This document shows, piece by piece, positions 12,294 through 58,303 of a stretch of 64,000 bases of DNA (position 1 is the stretch's first letter; each line of letters starts with the position of its first letter). A program made the translations under genes and the position numbers. The notes below the pieces were generated by a model that was not told where the DNA came from, made no database searches, and saw only the letters and a list, made by a program, of their open reading frames with translations. Source of the DNA: an uncultured virus (IMG/VR IMGVR_UViG_2925643758_000002) (Duplodnaviria; Heunggongvirae; Uroviricota; Caudoviricetes); IMG/VR virus record IMGVR_UViG_2925643758_000002; one strand, 5' to 3'.

Positions 12294-14525
12294 CTACCAC
12301 CTCCCGTCTCTCATCCGTTCTAAATCATACCCGTCCTGCTGAATGCGACTGATGTGCGGCTCTACAATACGGCCAACAACTTCACTATCCATCACGATAG
12401 GAGCGCCACCCTTCGTCTTAATCGCCTGCTCAATCGAACTGAGCGCGCGCAGCATATCCGATGATAAGCCAGAATCTCCTCCGAGCCCCGACGTATGCCC
12501 TGCGTCAATCATTCGCATAAGATTCGCCTGTTGCGCTTCAGTAAGCACCATTTCGTTACGCAGGGCCCGGATATCGACTTCGTGGCTCATCGGATTAGCA
12601 AATTGAGACGTTAGGCCGCCGATGTGAAGTTTATTGATCTGTCCGAGGCCGATGACGCCGCCAGTGTGGTAAGTACCTTCGTTCCCTTTTCCACGACTTA
12701 CGGCACGCTCCGTCTTCATAGAAACATCCGAAGTAATTGTCGTGATTCGTTTCGTGATGTCCTTACTTAGAGTAGCGTTCATCCTTTGGGCTTCTGACGT
12801 AATATCCGCGACCCGACCTCTTGCGGTACGAAGGTTTGCGATCTCGTCGTCAATTGCTTTAACAGACTTTCGATATTCATCCGTTTTACGATCGGCCGCA
12901 GTTGTGTTGTTTTTAAGATTCGCCTTAGCATCTTGAAGGCGAGCGATCTCCTTATCGATTACTCTCACGCCTTCGCCCTTTTTGGCGTTTAAGCCTACTT
13001 GTCGCATCTCTAAATCCACTAGTTTTTGCTTAACAGTATCGAGTTTATTTATCTCTTCATTTACCTTTTGTAGTTCTTCTTTTTTGCTTAGAAGCTTATC
13101 ACCACTCGCCCCAAGTTGCGCCTGAAGTTCGCTTAGAATCCGCTTTTCTGTACCTAGGATATTCTCCTTTTGTGCAGCGTCTTCTTTGTTTCCGGCCGCT
13201 TTCGCTTGTTTTATACTGTCTTCTATCCCCCTTACTTTCTCAAGCTGCTCCTCGGCTTTCACCTGATTTTCGCGATACTCCTCCGCAAGGCTATTTATCT
13301 TTTCTTGAAGCCTGCTTCTTTCATTGAGATTCTCAGTCTCTTTAGAGTCAAGTTTGGCTTTTTGAGTATTCAGTTCAATCCTTAATTCTTCGGCTTTTTC
13401 CTCAGTCAGCCGCTTTAACGCCTTAGTGTTTTTCGCGAACGCGTTACCTTGGTCTGTTATTGCCTTGCTTGTGATAGGAGCTTTTTCTAGTACCTTGTCA
13501 TTAAGCGAAAGATAGCGATCGAACTCATTATTTGTAAGACCCGACTTTTTGCGTAGCCCCTCCTGCTCCTCCTTCATCAGTTTTATCGCGTGAGAATCAG
13601 TTTCCAATTTAATGCGATCGTTCAAGTCGAGATAGTGCGCCATCTCTTCTGCTGTAAGCTTTGTTTTGTTTTGAAGTTTTTCAAACTCAGTCGCTAAATT
13701 ATTAATAGAATCTATCTCTTTTTGTTTGGCTTCGGCCGCCTCTAAACTAACGGTGTTCATCTGATCGTATCCCGCTTTCACCCCGACGAGTGCTCCCGCT
13801 AATAAAGAGAGCCCGGTGATCACCCATCCGGCCGGACCCATCGCAACGAACAAACCGCGCACTGCGATTCCGAGTTTCATCATGGAAGACGCAACTAGCG
13901 CCACCGCTGCGGCCGCACCCGCCATTTCGAGGCCTGTCGTAATGATTCCCGGATTCAGTTCGCTAAGGAACTCGACCACCTTCGTACCGGTATCGACAAT
14001 TTTTCGGAAAGTAGGTAAAAACTCGTTACCGATCGCAATTCCGAGGCCGTCGAGCGCAGACGTAAACTGTTCGAATGACCCTTTGAGGTTATCCATCTGC
14101 GTTTTCGCTACTTTGTCCGCTGTCCCGCCGGCTTCCTTCAGCGTCTTCGAGTAGTTGCGCAGTCCCTTTTCTCCGACGCCCAAAAGTGTAACGAACCCGG
14201 AAGCCGCTTCAACTCCGACGAGCTGTGCCGCCGCGGCCGTTTTCTGTGCCGATGTCATCCCTTCGAATTGCTTCGAAATATGGCCGACGAGCTCCGGTAT
14301 CGGCTTTAGATTTCCGTGGGCATCCTTTACTTCGATTCCGTACTTTTTCATCGCCTTGGCCGACTGGCCGACCGGATTCGTAAGGTGCAAGAGTGACGCA
14401 CGAAGAGCCGTACCCGCCATCGATCCTTGAATACCAGCGTCTGACATTTTCGCAACGGCCGTCGCAGTATCTTCGATTGAATATCCGAGAGAGTGCGCAA
14501 CAGGGGCGACGAATTTCATTGCATC
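12294..14525 (-). CDS. Tape measure protein, exon 2
   Basis: Continues exon 1 in frame after splicing (..LPQLG|DAMKFVAPVA..); GIQGSMAGTALR TP901-type motif; spliced product 933 aa. Confidence 0.88.
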   Translation of the reverse strand, partial: DAMKFVAPVAHSLGYSIEDTATAVAKMSDAGIQGSMAGTALRASLLHLTNPVGQSAKAMKKYGIEVKDAHGNLKPIPELVGHISKQFEGMTSAQKTAAAAQLVGVEAASGFVTLLGVGEKGLRNYSKTLKEAGGTADKVAKTQMDNLKGSFEQFTSALDGLGIAIGNEFLPTFRKIVDTGTKVVEFLSELNPGIITTGLEMAGAAAAVALVASSMMKLGIAVRGLFVAMGPAGWVITGLSLLAGALVGVKAGYDQMNTVSLEAAEAKQKEIDSINNLATEFEKLQNKTKLTAEEMAHYLDLNDRIKLETDSHAIKLMKEEQEGLRKKSGLTNNEFDRYLSLNDKVLEKAPITSKAITDQGNAFAKNTKALKRLTEEKAEELRIELNTQKAKLDSKETENLNERSRLQEKINSLAEEYRENQVKAEEQLEKVRGIEDSIKQAKAAGNKEDAAQKENILGTEKRILSELQAQLGASGDKLLSKKEELQKVNEEINKLDTVKQKLVDLEMRQVGLNAKKGEGVRVIDKEIARLQDAKANLKNNTTAADRKTDEYRKSVKAIDDEIANLRTARGRVADITSEAQRMNATLSKDITKRITTITSDVSMKTERAVSRGKGNEGTYHTGGVIGLGQINKLHIGGLTSQFANPMSHEVDIRALRNEMVLTEAQQANLMRMIDAGHTSGLGGDSGLSSDMLRALSSIEQAIKTKGGAPIVMDSEVVGRIVEPHISRIQQDGYDLERMRDGRW

Positions 14526-15599
14526 CAGTTTGTTATCCTACCGGCTCTTTATCCGGTAGTTCTTACGGTTTCCCGCAAGCTCAGACTATATCTTCACCCG
14601 CGTCAAAGACGTTAGGGTGCCACGCGCTCGTGGGTGTTTCATCATAGCTAATACGCCGTAGACTACTTCACCTAGTCGTTACACGTTCCGCAAGTTTCCT
14701 ATGCGGCTTCGCTCGGTATTCTCATATCACTTAAAAACTCCGAGACTACAACCTCAACCCTATTTAGATCCCAATAGGGAATCCTTAGTAACGGAATGCG
14801 CTTCCGTTCACAGTAGTCGTTTTTGATTCCATCTCGAATTTTAGTTAATCTCAGTCCTTCTTTCCCGCCGAAAAAATCAATTGCTTTAAAGTGTTGTCTG
14901 CCGTCGAACTCGATTAAGCCTATAACCCTCTCGCCCTCTGTAATGGCGAAATCAAAAAGTAACGGTTTTTTGTATTTACAATCAGAAAATGAATATTGGA
15001 TTTTAAAAGAGATTTTCCGCTTAACCAGCAAGCGCTCGATTAAATTTTCTCCCCGGGAAATGGAGCACTTCGGGCATTCATTCCTTTTTGTTAATAGATT
15101 ATTAGCCGAGGGCTCAAAGACGTGGCTGCAAATGTTGTGCCTAACTCGTACTTTTTCCCTACTGGTTTTGTACGGAGTAAGCAACGCATAGTCATTACCG
15201 TACATCTCCTGAAATCGCTTTTCAAATTCGTCAGGACTTAGTCTTTTTGACAGTCCTACACGAGCTTTAGCGCATACAGGACACCCTGTGTTCTTTCTGA
15301 TGAAATCTTTAGGGCATAGTAGAAACTCATTGCCGCAAACTGTACACAAGGTCTTAACACGCGTTACATTATTCACGTAAGTTCCAAGAATTCTATATTT
15401 TCCTTCCGTACGGTCATTAACAATTTTCAAAAATTCTTCATGTGTTCTTTTTTTCGGCATAAAAAAATCCCCCTCTTTAACTGCGAAACTTTTTAAAGAA
15501 AAGGACTGAGCGTTTACTTATTATTTAAAGTGACTTAGAGTTCACCGAATTCACGTGGTGTTACGCTGCTTGTTCCCAAGCGGCCGGGCAATTTTGTTT
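14526..15599 (-). mobile_element. Group I intron (1074 nt) in the tape measure gene
   Basis: P1 GGGU|AA...UUGCCC with U.G at the 5' splice site; P4 UUCGGUG/UACCGAG; R AACGACUAG; S GAAGAUAUAGUCU; terminal G at 14526. Confidence 0.9.
14699..15460 (-). CDS. Intron-encoded homing endonuclease (Vsr-like, EDxHD-type) with Cys-rich repeats
   Basis: CxxC repeats, then FDFAI..IEFDGRQH...RD; located inside the intron. Confidence 0.8.
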   Translation of the reverse strand: MPKKRTHEEFLKIVNDRTEGKYRILGTYVNNVTRVKTLCTVCGNEFLLCPKDFIRKNTGCPVCAKARVGLSKRLSPDEFEKRFQEMYGNDYALLTPYKTSREKVRVRHNICSHVFEPSANNLLTKRNECPKCSISRGENLIERLLVKRKISFKIQYSFSDCKYKKPLLFDFAITEGERVIGLIEFDGRQHFKAIDFFGGKEGLRLTKIRDGIKNDYCERKRIPLLRIPYWDLNRVEVVVSEFLSDMRIPSEAA

Positions 15600-16169
15600 A
15601 CCCAATTGCGGCAGATCCGTATTGGCTGTCGTCATCGCTTTTACGAGTACGTCAACGGCATGCCCGGAGTCTTCCGCTTTAATGCCGAAGCCGGTCATGA
15701 TGTTCGAAACGATATCCGCGGAACGTCCGAGCCCTTCGCCTGAAGCTGCCGCCAAGTTGAGCACGGCCGGCAACGATCCGACTTGCGCTTTTACGCTGAA
15801 GCCCGCCATCGCAAGATATTGAAGACCCTCGGCCGCTTCGACCGCGGTATATTTTGTTTCGGCGCCCATCTTAGCCGCGATATTCTTCAGATCTTCGAAG
15901 TCCTGACCGGTCGCACCGCTGATCGCTTTAACTCGCGACATGGCCTCCTCGAAGTCAGCCGCTTTCTTAACAGAAACGCCGATGCCGGCCACGACTGCAC
16001 CTCCGACCGCAAGCGAAGCCTTTTGGATGAGGCCCATTTGCTTCGACAGATTCGCTGATGAACGGCCCATTTGATCCATATCGTTTCGAGCTTGCTGCGA
16101 TCGTCGGGACCAGTCCGCCATGTCTAATACGAGACGCGCCCGGATTTCTCCGACTGTTGTTCCGGCCAT
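15600..16169 (-). CDS. Tape measure protein, exon 1
   Basis: TP901-like N-terminus (FEEAMSRVKAISGAT, TKYTAVEAAEGLQYLAMAGF); exactly 190 codons to the splice site. Confidence 0.88.
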
Positions 16170-33413: not shown

Positions 33414-33575
33414 ATGGACGAAAAACAATACGCTCGCATTGCGCTTACAAACGGGCAGATTGCGCGCTTTGAATTACCTACGAATCTAAACAGCCGAGAC
33501 ATAGCTATCTTAAAATCGCAGATCGAAGTTCTTGAATTACAAACGGAAGATGACGAAGAAAAGACGCCCGTATAA
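33414..33575 (+). CDS. 53-aa hypothetical protein
   Basis: AAGGAG RBS; manual translation MDEKQYARIALTNG... Confidence 0.55.
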   Translation: MDEKQYARIALTNGQIARFELPTNLNSRDIAILKSQIEVLELQTEDDEEKTPV

Positions 33576-33590
33576 GGCGTCCTTTTTCGT
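33559..33590. terminator. Bidirectional intrinsic terminator
   Basis: GACGCC-loop-GGCGTC flanked by A and T runs. Confidence 0.75.
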
Positions 33591-33591
33591 T

Positions 33592-33663
33592 TTATGCTCC
33601 GCGTGACGGACTTGCGCCCCTACTCGCGCTTTCTAGCGGACTAGCTCCTCGTGGCATCCCCAT
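33592..33663 (-). CDS. 23-aa poly-arbitrium-peptide minigene MGMPRGASPLESASRGASPSRGA
   Basis: GGAGGTGA RBS, ATG..TAA, three xxxRGA hexamers, terminator directly downstream. Confidence 0.8.
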   Translation of the reverse strand: MGMPRGASPLESASRGASPSRGA

Positions 33664-33687
33664 TCGCCTCACCTCCGATATAGTAAA

Positions 33688-33717
33688 ATTATACCTTCTT
33701 AACGTTGAACAGCGCAA
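33688..33717 (-). promoter_or_regulatory. Candidate SigA promoter of the minigene
   Basis: TTGCGC-18-TATAAT in the 3' end of the upstream gene. Confidence 0.5.
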
Positions 33718-34489
33718 TCAGCGTTTTGTCCGGCGTCTTGGATTGTCGATAGAATACGTTAGGATTAAACGTGTAGCGCTCCGGCTCGCTTCCGACTTTA
33801 ATGCGTGCAACAACGTATTCGCCGTCGAATTTCATCTGCTTCAGGCGCCGGCCGAGCGTATCTGAAGTAACACCGATCGCCGTCGCAAGCTCCTTCTTAT
33901 TGAACCAGCGGATGCGCTTCGGATTCTTTTCGAAAGGATTTTCGCATAGAGCGTTTGTTTCGAAGTGAATAAACGGCAGCATTCGATAGATCAGTCCGAT
34001 GTCAGTCGCCTTCACTTCGCTGTACACACGTTTAATCTTCGCGCTGTAAAGCTTGACGACTTGCTGGCTACCGAAATTCCCTTTAAAGTGATAGCGGTCA
34101 TTTACACTGTAGCGGCCGCCCTCTTCACGGATAATGTCGTGCTCGGTACAGGCGAAAAGGAAGTCGTAAAAGGTCATCCGTTTTTTACCGAGCTGCAAAA
34201 CGTCCATCATGTCCGCGGTGGTCATCGGTGTTTTATTACGGCTGGATTTGATTAGTACACCGTTGTAGTCGACGTAGCACTGAAGCAGCATCAGGTAGCC
34301 ACACTGTGCCGTCGTAAGAGCGTCATAGACTTCGTGAATATTAGACATATTGGCGTTTGAGAAATCGCGCCGATCGGCTGTTTTTTCTTGCTGCTGACGA
34401 AAGGCTGCGTCTTGGTTGCGGTGCCGCAGCGTGTACATTTCCGACCAGTCTTCGCCTGTCTCCGTATTAATAACTCGTAATCTCTTCAT
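33689..34489 (-). CDS. RepL-like winged-helix DNA-binding protein
   Basis: VINTETGE N-terminus, HTH KELATAIGV...LGRRLK, C-terminal YTFNPNVFY. Confidence 0.55.
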   Translation of the reverse strand: MKRLRVINTETGEDWSEMYTLRHRNQDAAFRQQQEKTADRRDFSNANMSNIHEVYDALTTAQCGYLMLLQCYVDYNGVLIKSSRNKTPMTTADMMDVLQLGKKRMTFYDFLFACTEHDIIREEGGRYSVNDRYHFKGNFGSQQVVKLYSAKIKRVYSEVKATDIGLIYRMLPFIHFETNALCENPFEKNPKRIRWFNKKELATAIGVTSDTLGRRLKQMKFDGEYVVARIKVGSEPERYTFNPNVFYRQSKTPDKTLIALFNVKKV

Positions 34490-34542
34490 TATACCGTCTC
34501 CTTTTCACAAAAATAAAAGAGCGCTGAACGGGCGCCCTCACA

Positions 34543-56966: not shown

Positions 56967-57089
56967 TTATCCTCCAACTCTTACTTCTGCGGTTTGAACT
57001 CCGCCAGACGCTTCGTCTTTCACTTGTCCGTTATGCAACGCAGCAAAACCCGCTCCTAAAACTAAAACAATTAATAAAATCTTTTTCAT
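56967..57089 (-). CDS. aimP: Arbitrium pro-peptide, 40 aa, probable mature EVRVGG
   Basis: MKKILLIVLVLGAGFAALHNGQVKDEASGGVQTAEVRVGG; signal peptide; RBS; overlaps the receptor's 3' end. Confidence 0.85.
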   Translation of the reverse strand: MKKILLIVLVLGAGFAALHNGQVKDEASGGVQTAEVRVGG

Positions 57090-58200
57090 AAAAAATTTCC
57101 CCTCTCGATTTAATTTTTAGGTTTTTTAATACTGAAGCATGCCCTCTGTCCTCTCCTATCATCATGAGGTCATCCGCAATCAACGAAGCGAACAAGTAGT
57201 TCATCCCTGTATGAAAATGGATGTATCCCTGATGCAATCTATCTTTAGAGAGACACTGAACATACTTGAAATATACCAGAAAGTCGGCATCACCTCCTAA
57301 AATTAATTCTTTTTCGAATAGCGACAGATCTGGTATCCCTCTGCCCTCTCTATGCTTGAAGTATATTTTTGCCAATTCAAGGTTATATTGCGTTTCTTTG
57401 ACTAAGACAGGCTCACCTACTAGCTTCATAACCTCCAGGCTTTTCTGGAAATATTCTAAGCTTTTTTCCTTATCTTTTTCTAGGTTGATCATACCGAGGT
57501 AATAATAGCCGTCTGATTGGTGTTTTAGATTCACTTGGCCCTTTATAAGGACATTTGCGTGATAAGAACATAGCTCAATCTCATTTAAGCTTAAATAGGC
57601 AGGAGCAAGAACTTCCGAAAGTCTATACAAATAACATTCTTTATAAAAAAGGGACCGCTCGGTATTCATTTTTTTAAGGTCTTTAACAACCTCTTCAGCT
57701 TCTCTCGTTATTCCATAAAAGTCCTTATGGTAGTAGTACGATACGCATTTATATATTCTCTTTAAAATATTTAGTTCTTTATTGCCGTAAGCTTTTACTT
57801 TCGACATTTGAGAGGAAAGCTGATTGAAGTTTGTTTTATAGGTCATGTAATCATGTAGAACTGTATACGCGCGGACATAGGGGACAAGGGCTTCATCTTC
57901 CTGAGAAATTTCAATAAGTTTTCCTAGCAACCCCACGTCGCGCTTTACAGCAGCGTACTCAAAAGCTTGCTTTGTAGCCTCTGTCGTAGGGAGTTTTAGG
58001 CACCAATCTCTCATTTTTTCGTGGTAATTTCCTTTAAAAAAGTATTGGCTCAATCTAAGTATTTTACGGAAACCGATTTTTCCATCATCTTCAAAATCAT
58101 ATAAGCAACTCGACTTTATCCCGGTGCTTTCTGCGAGTTGGCGAACATTCAAATCCATCTCTTTTCTTATCTCGATAACTTCATCGACTATTGATTGCAA
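57031..58200 (-). CDS. aimR: AimR-like RRNPP peptide receptor (HTH + TPR)
   Basis: N-terminal HTH, AFEYA motif, TPR-like helices; followed by a secreted peptide gene; TTG start at 58200 fits the RBS. Confidence 0.82.
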   Translation of the reverse strand: MQSIVDEVIEIRKEMDLNVRQLAESTGIKSSCLYDFEDDGKIGFRKILRLSQYFFKGNYHEKMRDWCLKLPTTEATKQAFEYAAVKRDVGLLGKLIEISQEDEALVPYVRAYTVLHDYMTYKTNFNQLSSQMSKVKAYGNKELNILKRIYKCVSYYYHKDFYGITREAEEVVKDLKKMNTERSLFYKECYLYRLSEVLAPAYLSLNEIELCSYHANVLIKGQVNLKHQSDGYYYLGMINLEKDKEKSLEYFQKSLEVMKLVGEPVLVKETQYNLELAKIYFKHREGRGIPDLSLFEKELILGGDADFLVYFKYVQCLSKDRLHQGYIHFHTGMNYLFASLIADDLMMIGEDRGHASVLKNLKIKSRGEIFYEKDFINCFSFRSGFCCVA

Positions 58201-58303
58201 ACATAACACCCCTCAAATACAATTTACTTAACTGGTTAAGCACAGTATACTACATATGCACACTTTTGTGTGCGGAATTTTTTAGAAAATCGGAGGTTTT
58301 TTA

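Follow-up and report, generated by a model that had tools for sequence, protein, structure and literature searches.

A 23-codon minigene in a temperate phage of the Bacillus subtilis group encodes three hexapeptides that are the arbitrium signals of other, SPbeta-like phages, and our best explanation, to which we assign a probability of about 70%, is that it forms a multi-signal mimic that would switch off the AimR receptors of rival phages while sparing the phage's own. The gene lies in a stretch of 64,000 nucleotides, here called the window, from an uncultured virus of the Caudoviricetes (IMG/VR record IMGVR_UViG_2925643758_000002). An earlier note, made from the letters of the window and a list of its open reading frames, had already read the gene as a multi-specific mimic, and that reading is supported by the comparisons reported here. 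Comparison among relatives strongly supports a translated poly-signal gene, under selection and composed of rivals' arbitrium peptides, and the proposed jamming function is well motivated.

Results

The minigene and its flanking signals

Direct reading of the minus strand placed the start codon (ATG) of the minigene at 33663-33661 and its stop codon (TAA) at 33594-33592. The product, M-GMPRGA-SPLE-SASRGA-SPSRGA, has 23 residues and carries no signal peptide, pro-region or hydrophobic stretch. The earlier note had described this minus-strand frame as missing from the ORF track, and the ORF list indeed contains only a 41-residue, TTG-extended form (33592..33717). Its account of the three RGA motifs, spelled CGA GGA GCT, AGG GGC GCA and CGC GGA GCA, was likewise accurate, and the strong ribosome-binding site that it had placed upstream was read directly as GGAGGTGA, 5 nt before the ATG. 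The same motif is found in all 24 listed loci of the minigene family, loci that were themselves located by that motif. The candidate promoter of the earlier note stood only in part. The TATAAT box and the 18-nt spacing are present, but the -35 element is weaker than had been claimed, TTGCGC agreeing with the consensus at three of six positions, and a consensus promoter scan of the window did not return the TTGCGC-18-TATAAT site among its matches. The GTATAAT sequence is kept in 22 of 22 listed MG-type loci (those whose product begins M-G). The terminator that had been noticed after the gene was found as a hairpin at 33563-33581 with a T-run on both strands. The coordinates of these and other features are collected in Table 1.

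Table 1 Positions of the minigene, its parts and signals, its upstream neighbor and the phage's own arbitrium genes in the window
Feature	Position	Strand	Remarks
Minigene coding sequence	33592..33663	minus	23 codons + TAA, by direct reading; homologues at the same position in relatives
Cassette 1, GMPRGA	33643..33660	minus	directly after the initiator Met
Spacer SPLE	33631..33642	minus	kept as [S/N]-P-L-E in relatives
Cassette 2, SASRGA	33613..33630	minus	SAIRGA, SIIRGA, GIVRGA or SIVRGA in relatives
Cassette 3, SPSRGA	33595..33612	minus	abuts the stop codon, so that its C-terminus is free
Ribosome-binding site GGAGGTGA	33669..33676	minus	direct reading
TATAAT -10 box	33688..33693	minus	perfect; overlaps the stop codon of the upstream 266-aa gene
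Weak -35, TTGCGC	33712..33717	minus	18-nt spacer to TATAAT, by direct reading
Bidirectional intrinsic terminator	33556..33581	both	G+C-rich hairpin, common to the minigene and the convergent + strand genes
Upstream 266-aa gene, unknown function	33689..34489	minus	phrog_9501
AimR, own arbitrium receptor	57031..58209	minus	PF22871 E 3.6e-16; NF038310 E 2e-52, 178.5 bits (cut-off 70)
Own AimP, 40 aa	56967..57089	minus	hydrophobic, signal-peptide-like N-terminus; ends ..AEVRVGG

An Rfam search of the minigene locus gave no match, and the RNA fold of the region was unremarkable except for the terminator (z -1.86). Two RNA-library assemblies of a relative include the minigene locus, with 67 letters where the window has 52, corresponding to a longer variant. 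One of these contigs has a depth of 91, which falls to 3.5 shortly before the 266-aa gene, upstream of about 34478. The step in depth can be taken only as a hint of expression; contigs cannot show a transcript, and the libraries may contain DNA.

The 266-aa protein encoded upstream gave no Pfam, NCBIfam or PDB sequence match, and the depositors of related phages have labelled it as DNA-binding or AsnC-family. A terminator-like hairpin is located at 34517-34539 (minus strand), between a 195-aa gene and the 266-aa gene. Because of this hairpin, the 266-aa gene and the minigene may form a transcription unit of their own, apart from the sigma-factor operon.

The phage and its own arbitrium system

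The window belongs to a temperate Bacillus subtilis-group siphophage and includes an integrase gene together with genes for lysis, tail, capsid, portal, replication and nucleotide metabolism. Among named phages, the closest to it are 268TH007, 268TH002 and phi18-2, all of B. subtilis. The tape-measure gene appears split (12294-16169, minus strand), with positions 4-98 of the PhageMin_Tail profile matching a 202-aa ORF (15561-16169), positions 100-201 matching a 741-aa ORF (12294-14519), and a 253-aa ORF (14699-15460), which weakly matches CapR and zinc-finger profiles, lying between the two pieces.

Analysis of the 99 ORFs scanned in the window identified a single AimR (57031-58209). The minigene has neither a signal peptide nor an adjacent receptor, as had been suggested, the sole AimR being located about 23 kb away. 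The phage's own signal had also been judged unrelated to the cassettes of the minigene, and this holds for the AimP product, which ends in ..AEVRVGG. The cognate aimP directly follows aimR and shares 59 nt with its 3' end, in a different frame; the same overlap was seen in three natural systems of other Bacillus genomes whose signals are ..EIKVGG or ..AIKVGG. A search of viral contigs for close relatives of this AimR confirmed none.

The hexapeptides are catalogued arbitrium signals

Comparison of the hexamers with a published AimP catalogue, a check proposed in the earlier note, found all three listed. Table S2 of Gallego-del-Sol et al. (Cell 2026) draws on 281 systems and gives 26 peptides as proposed mature signals of clade 2, with SASRGA counted in 42/281, GMPRGA in 32/281 and SPSRGA in 8/281. 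The three hexamers of the window are thus catalogued mature AimPs of clade 2 (SPbeta-like), which together account for 82 of the 281 systems. SASRGA and SPSRGA, which the earlier note had tentatively taken for natural signals, are confirmed as such in two papers and in this table. Natural aimP genes ending in GMPRGA were also found in the genomes that we fetched.

The activity of free peptides of this kind is described in the available text of several publications. Synthetic hexapeptides bind AimR, inactivate it and abolish its DNA binding. In infection, reporter, lysogeny and excision assays, SASRGA, SPSRGA, SIIRGA and GVVRGA act on the phi3T AimR, and both SASRGA and SPSRGA repress it (Manley et al. 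2025 preprint, available text). Such hexapeptides are reported to act on cognate and non-cognate AimRs alike, the receiving phage entering lysogeny early and the emitter gaining in fitness. The structures of SPbeta AimR, as far as the available text describes them, show the free N-terminal amine of the peptide held by Q299 and E300 and the free C-terminal carboxylate held by R228, both contacts driving closure of the receptor.

The minigene family in relatives

The earlier note had proposed a search of relatives for a small ORF with variable xxxRGA cassettes at this position, and such an ORF was found as an MG-type minigene at 21 of 61 readable loci. The cassettes vary among these relatives and are mostly other catalogued arbitrium signals, a pattern beyond coincidence and the opposite of the lack of conservation that would have spoken against the earlier reading. 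The loci were retrieved through homologues of the 266-aa protein and number 67, of which 21 contain an MG-type minigene, 2 contain a MIKAIT-type minigene, 38 contain none and 6 end too early to be read; some of the 67 rows represent one prophage recorded in two collections. Further variants, beyond the 67 loci, came from pattern scans and a protein search. The total is 24 distinct peptides (18 MG-type and 6 MIKAIT-type). A signal peptide is absent from all 24, every MG-type variant begins with M-G, and each minigene product contains 2 to 4 cassettes.

The nearest record, an IMG/VR provirus, encodes M-GMPRGA-NPLE-SAIRGA-SPSRGA. Other variants rearrange, replace or add cassettes, as in GMPRGA-NPLE-SAIRGA-GPAE-SASRGA, GMPRGA-SPLE-SIIRGA-GPAE-SASRGA, GELNPGA-GPQLY-GMPRGA-SPLE-SIIRGA-GPAE-SASRGA, GMPRGA-SPLE-GIVRGA and GEIKPGA-NPLE-SAIRGA-SPSRGA, and prophages of B. 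paralicheniformis and B. glycinifermentans carry GFTVGA-KELPKPKY-GFPRGA. Eight of the ten distinct RGA/VGA cassettes are catalogued signals (GMPRGA, SASRGA, SPSRGA, SAIRGA, SIIRGA, GIVRGA, GFTVGA and GFPRGA) and jointly cover 151 of the 281 systems; the remaining two, GPVRGA and SIVRGA, are not among the 26 catalogued peptides. GFTVGA and GFPRGA were catalogued from B. sonorensis (Gallego-del-Sol et al., Cell 2026), and the cassettes therefore follow the host group, in this case the B. licheniformis group. The commonest catalogued signal, GFGRGA (56/281), occurs in B. subtilis-group strains and is never a cassette in the 24 variants.

Two further cassette types were observed. At seven loci the first cassette is GEIKPGA, GEIRPGA, GEIKLGA or GELNPGA, replacing GMPRGA, and these GE..PGA sequences are similar to EIKVGG and EIKVGA, signals that are used within the family's own clade. 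No natural AimP ending exactly like them was found in the systems examined, and a scan for natural AimPs ending in EIKPGA-TAA gave seven matches, all of them chance. Homologous minigenes of the B. pumilus group were seen at six loci downstream of the 266-aa homologue. Their design is MIKAITK-x-[GELKPGG, GEVKPGG, GERKPGG, DPKPGG, VPKPGG, DPKPGS], mostly followed by SASK, and their -10 region reads TGGTATGAT or TGGTATGGT. In the systems examined the B. pumilus-group cassettes have no exact natural counterpart, the nearest endings being ..ADPIPGG, ..EIKVGG and ..DVRPGM.

Searches by nucleotide sequence or pattern added little to this family. An exact 26-nt search of viral contigs returned 0 matches, and no named phage was matched by the minigene in blastn. 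A wider blastn query retrieved only 268TH007, 268TH002 and phi18-2, all without a minigene, together with 13 Paenibacillus larvae phage records whose short matches cover only part of the 266-aa gene. Scanning for the M-GMPRGA pattern gave 80 matches, 8 of them in the minigene family; the other 72 were rejected, being mostly inside longer ORFs of unrelated contigs and otherwise chance short ORFs without a Shine-Dalgarno sequence. A metagenome scan gave at least 119 matches, and among the matches listed there were 2 family members and no new variant. Related phage records annotate nothing at the minigene position, and the protein collection holds three nameless clusters. A literature search on the unmatched cassettes found nothing relevant.

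Selection on the peptide

Comparison of 13 distinct B. subtilis-group sequences revealed 23 extra synonymous codon variants and 8 amino-acid variants. Half of the latter (4/8) affect the first three residues of cassette 2 and convert one catalogued signal to another. Only synonymous changes occur at the R, G and A residues of each cassette and at the L and E of the spacer. Spacer codons in these sequences alternate between CTA, TTA and TTG for leucine and between GAA and GAG for glutamate, the only amino-acid changes within the spacer being S/N and one P/S. Relatives that differ by SPSRGA versus GPAE-SASRGA are separated by a 12-nt in-frame indel; minigene indels are multiples of three, and the ribosome-binding site and ATG are retained. 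To judge from these patterns, selection acts on the minigene peptide.

The natural aimP genes examined spell the signals differently. SPSRGA is encoded by TCN-CCA-AGY-CGN in natural aimP and by AGY-CCG-TCA-CGC in the minigene, which uses the other serine codon family. Because natural aimP genes encode the hexapeptides with different codons, the identity of the hexapeptides is evidently a convergence at the peptide level and not the result of copied aimP DNA. In 22 of 22 variants the antisense frame that shares its wobble positions with the sense frame is open as well, so that the strand cannot be assigned from codon variation alone. This antisense frame contains no ATG, GTG or TTG within the minigene and would lie past the + strand terminator. 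The sense strand holds the conserved ribosome-binding site, the ATG and the matches to known signals.

A precisely inserted, moving module

In 268TH007 and phi18-2, which lack the minigene, nothing separates the stop codon of the 266-aa gene from the same AACGAAAAAGGACGCC hairpin. The minigene is therefore a precise insertion of about 97 nt between stop codon and terminator. Of the 38 relatives without a minigene, 22 have the terminator immediately after the stop codon. At two loci (L107 and L131) the same TATAAT-TTTTACTAT-GGAGGTGA-ORF-terminator unit stands behind a non-homologous upstream gene, with a -10 box that reads TGGTATAAT, an extended -10. The minigene module evidently moves.

These characteristics recall phage morons. 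The minigene has a candidate promoter and a terminator of its own, lies between conserved genes and is patchily distributed (absent from 38 of 61 readable loci), and the likeness extends to its precise insertion, its own -10 box and its two upstream contexts. Unlike typical morons, it is far smaller and its cargo is a string of signals. As part of our best reading as a whole, the minigene is probably a translated accessory module of the moron type.

Self, non-self and co-resident systems

Own AimPs of family members end in AEVRVGG, ADIRVGA, AINAIGG, ANQLGG or AEIKVGG, and in the family members examined no own-AimP ending was found in the minigene of the same record. Three genomes with a GFTVGA/GFPRGA minigene also hold a clade-2 system, with GFPRGA as its signal in one genome and GFTVGA in two IMG genomes, and a fourth such genome has no AimR at all. 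One B. licheniformis-group genome contains two related proviruses, each with a GFTVGA/GFPRGA minigene, and also a 173-kb provirus whose AimP ends in GFTVGA.

Other co-resident systems are not matched. Genome G058 has an adjacent GFGRGA system in the same record, and the minigene cassettes do not match it. The clade-2 aimR of genome G055 is interrupted, in two pieces about 1.3 kb apart with internal stops, and lies about 4 kb from minigene L107. An intact SAIRGA aimP follows the broken aimR; the L107 minigene carries GMPRGA and GIVRGA and lacks any peptide reported to act on the SAIRGA receptor. The mismatches in G058 and G055 count against a simple rule by which the minigene targets whatever is co-resident. 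Relatives without a minigene also co-reside with clade-2 systems, in two cases.

Discussion

Proposed mechanism of the mimic

We propose that the peptide, which lacks an export signal, would be made in the cytoplasm. Methionine aminopeptidase removes the initiator methionine when glycine follows. Its action on the minigene product would leave GMPRGA with a native N-terminus, and the stop codon would supply the native C-terminus of the last cassette. Since SPbeta AimR anchors both free ends of the hexapeptide, the precursor would have to be cut precisely, and a peptidase is expected to cut at the conserved spacer junctions, between RGA and the following xP.. and after the closing ..E or ..Y. 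The conservation of the spacers suggests that this peptidase is a specific one. The released hexapeptides would then fill the pocket of a rival AimR, the receptor would leave the aimX promoter, and the rival would enter lysogeny or fail to be induced. The phage's own AimR, which uses ..EVRVGG, would not be triggered. Our preferred route is action inside the carrying cell, as a private device against superinfecting or co-resident SPbeta-like phages. We prefer it because every variant is leaderless, because the gene has its own -10 box and because minigenes co-reside with target prophages; taken over all the possibilities, it would have slightly less than even odds. Against the mimic stand the junctions of the minigene product, which are E/S, E/G and Y/G compared with A/S and A/G in natural pro-AimPs, and those cassettes (GPVRGA, SIVRGA, GE..PGA and all of the B. 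pumilus group) that lack an exact natural counterpart in the systems examined. The reading is weakened further by the absence of GFGRGA from the cassettes, by the 38 of 61 readable relatives that have no minigene, by the minigene-less relatives that nonetheless share a genome with clade-2 systems, by the open antisense frame and by the weakness of the evidence on expression.

Alternative explanations

The same mimic might reach its targets by another route, in which the peptide is released at lysis, trimmed by extracellular proteases and imported via Opp, acting as a public, false high-density signal that sends rivals into lysogeny. The conserved spacers end in Glu or Tyr, and such ends fit the specificities of glutamyl endopeptidase and subtilisin, two enzymes secreted by Bacillus. 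Import precedes the action of natural arbitrium peptides, and other phages can be manipulated with conditioned media, according to the available text of published work, and tandem phage Phr propeptides are described as maturing outside the cell (Felipe-Ruiz et al., PLoS Biol 2024, available text). A signal peptide, however, would broadcast the product sooner, and from lysogens as well, and yet it is absent in 24 of 24 variants; the own -10 box, moreover, suggests expression that is independent of the lytic programme. Release at lysis is the main alternative, which we entertain only tentatively. It is improbable that the peptides instead target the host and alter Bacillus development (sporulation, biofilm) independently of AimR. 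This proposal draws on a 2026 preprint, the available text of which reports altered colony development and increased sporulation in response to SAIRGA, independently of AimR, but the window's variant of the minigene contains no SAIRGA, and a host target leaves unexplained why the cassettes track many catalogued AimR ligands and differ by host group.

Two other explanations seem to us very hard to sustain. One holds that the phage uses the peptide in its own lysis-lysogeny decision, either as an additional ligand of its AimR or on some other receptor of its own. The window phage is indeed an arbitrium phage, and the GE..PGA first cassettes of some relatives have the above likeness to own-clade signals. 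The 99 ORFs nevertheless include one AimR with a different cognate AimP, the cassettes are the exact signals of other phages, and a constitutive agonist produced internally would blind the phage's own sensor. According to the other explanation the ORF is not expressed as a peptide at all, being a by-product of a variable stop-to-terminator spacer, an RNA element or an antisense reading. Its extreme shortness, the lack of annotation in related records (three nameless protein clusters aside) and the antisense frame open in every one of the 22 variants would be consistent with this view. Retention of the ribosome-binding site and ATG, the restriction of indels to multiples of three and the match of 8/10 cassettes to catalogued signals with non-homologous codons argue for translation, while the missing Rfam match, the unremarkable fold (z -1.86) and the absence of a start codon from the antisense frame argue against an RNA element or an antisense gene.

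The multi-signal mimic, our preferred reading, also admits a bolder form. The locus may be one of fast-shuffling 'signal warfare', with an array that tracks the signals of rivals in each host group and, inside the lysogen, privately forces incoming or co-resident SPbeta-like phages into dormancy, and with the unmatched GE..PGA and ..KPGG cassettes as designed agonists or antagonists of sibling receptors. This form is speculative, and we consider it possible rather than probable.

Relation to known signalling systems

The product resembles canonical AimP (SPbeta, phi3T) in its mature hexapeptides and in a last cassette that ends at the stop codon; SPSRGA followed by TAA gives the xxxxG[G/A] sequence at the extreme C-terminus that marks an AimP. 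Unlike canonical AimP, the minigene has no signal peptide or pro-region and does not adjoin aimR, and it holds several different signals in unrelated codons, with no homology beyond the hexapeptides. The natural AimPs examined start with MKK.., followed by a hydrophobic run. Streptococcal SHP and ComS are also short precursors without a Sec signal peptide, and are exported by PptAB. They are hydrophobic, encode one signal each and have an adjacent cognate receptor, Rgg or ComR. The minigene product shares their shortness and lack of a leader, but is multi-signal and has no adjacent receptor.

The same ligands and receptors are involved in the cross-talk between complete arbitrium systems, where the receiver turns to lysogeny early and is induced less (Manley et al. 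2025 preprint; Gallego-del-Sol et al., Cell 2026; available text of both). Each phage described there emits only its own secreted signal, so that cross-talk is a side effect of similarity, whereas the minigene is separate, receptor-less and composed of foreign signals only. Tandem Phr propeptides of phage Rap-Phr systems likewise contain several units per precursor, which are freed by proteolysis (Felipe-Ruiz et al., PLoS Biol 2024, available text). In contrast to the minigene product, these propeptides are secreted, lie beside their cognate Rap receptor and hold units for one receptor. The minigene has no leader and no receptor, its units address different foreign receptors, and its neighbors are the 266-aa protein gene and convergent genes. 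No description of a receptor-less, leaderless, multi-signal arbitrium gene was found in the literature searched, which included the available text of both cross-talk discussions and of a 2026 review.

Significance

Arbitrium is the model for communication between viruses, and work of 2025-2026, in its available text, indicates that similar signals leak between complete systems to the gain of the emitter. A receptor-less, leaderless gene made only of rivals' signals would demonstrate selection for deception in its own right. Should the bolder, fast-shuffling form of the mimic be true, the minigene would be the first gene devoted to the forging, by one virus, of another's communication signal. 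It would also provide a compact natural reagent, with up to four specificities in one small ORF. Several matters become testable through the minigene, namely whether arbitrium peptides act without secretion, which peptidases mature them and why signal repertoires diversify. More generally, ORFs that fall under annotation thresholds can carry ecologically important functions.
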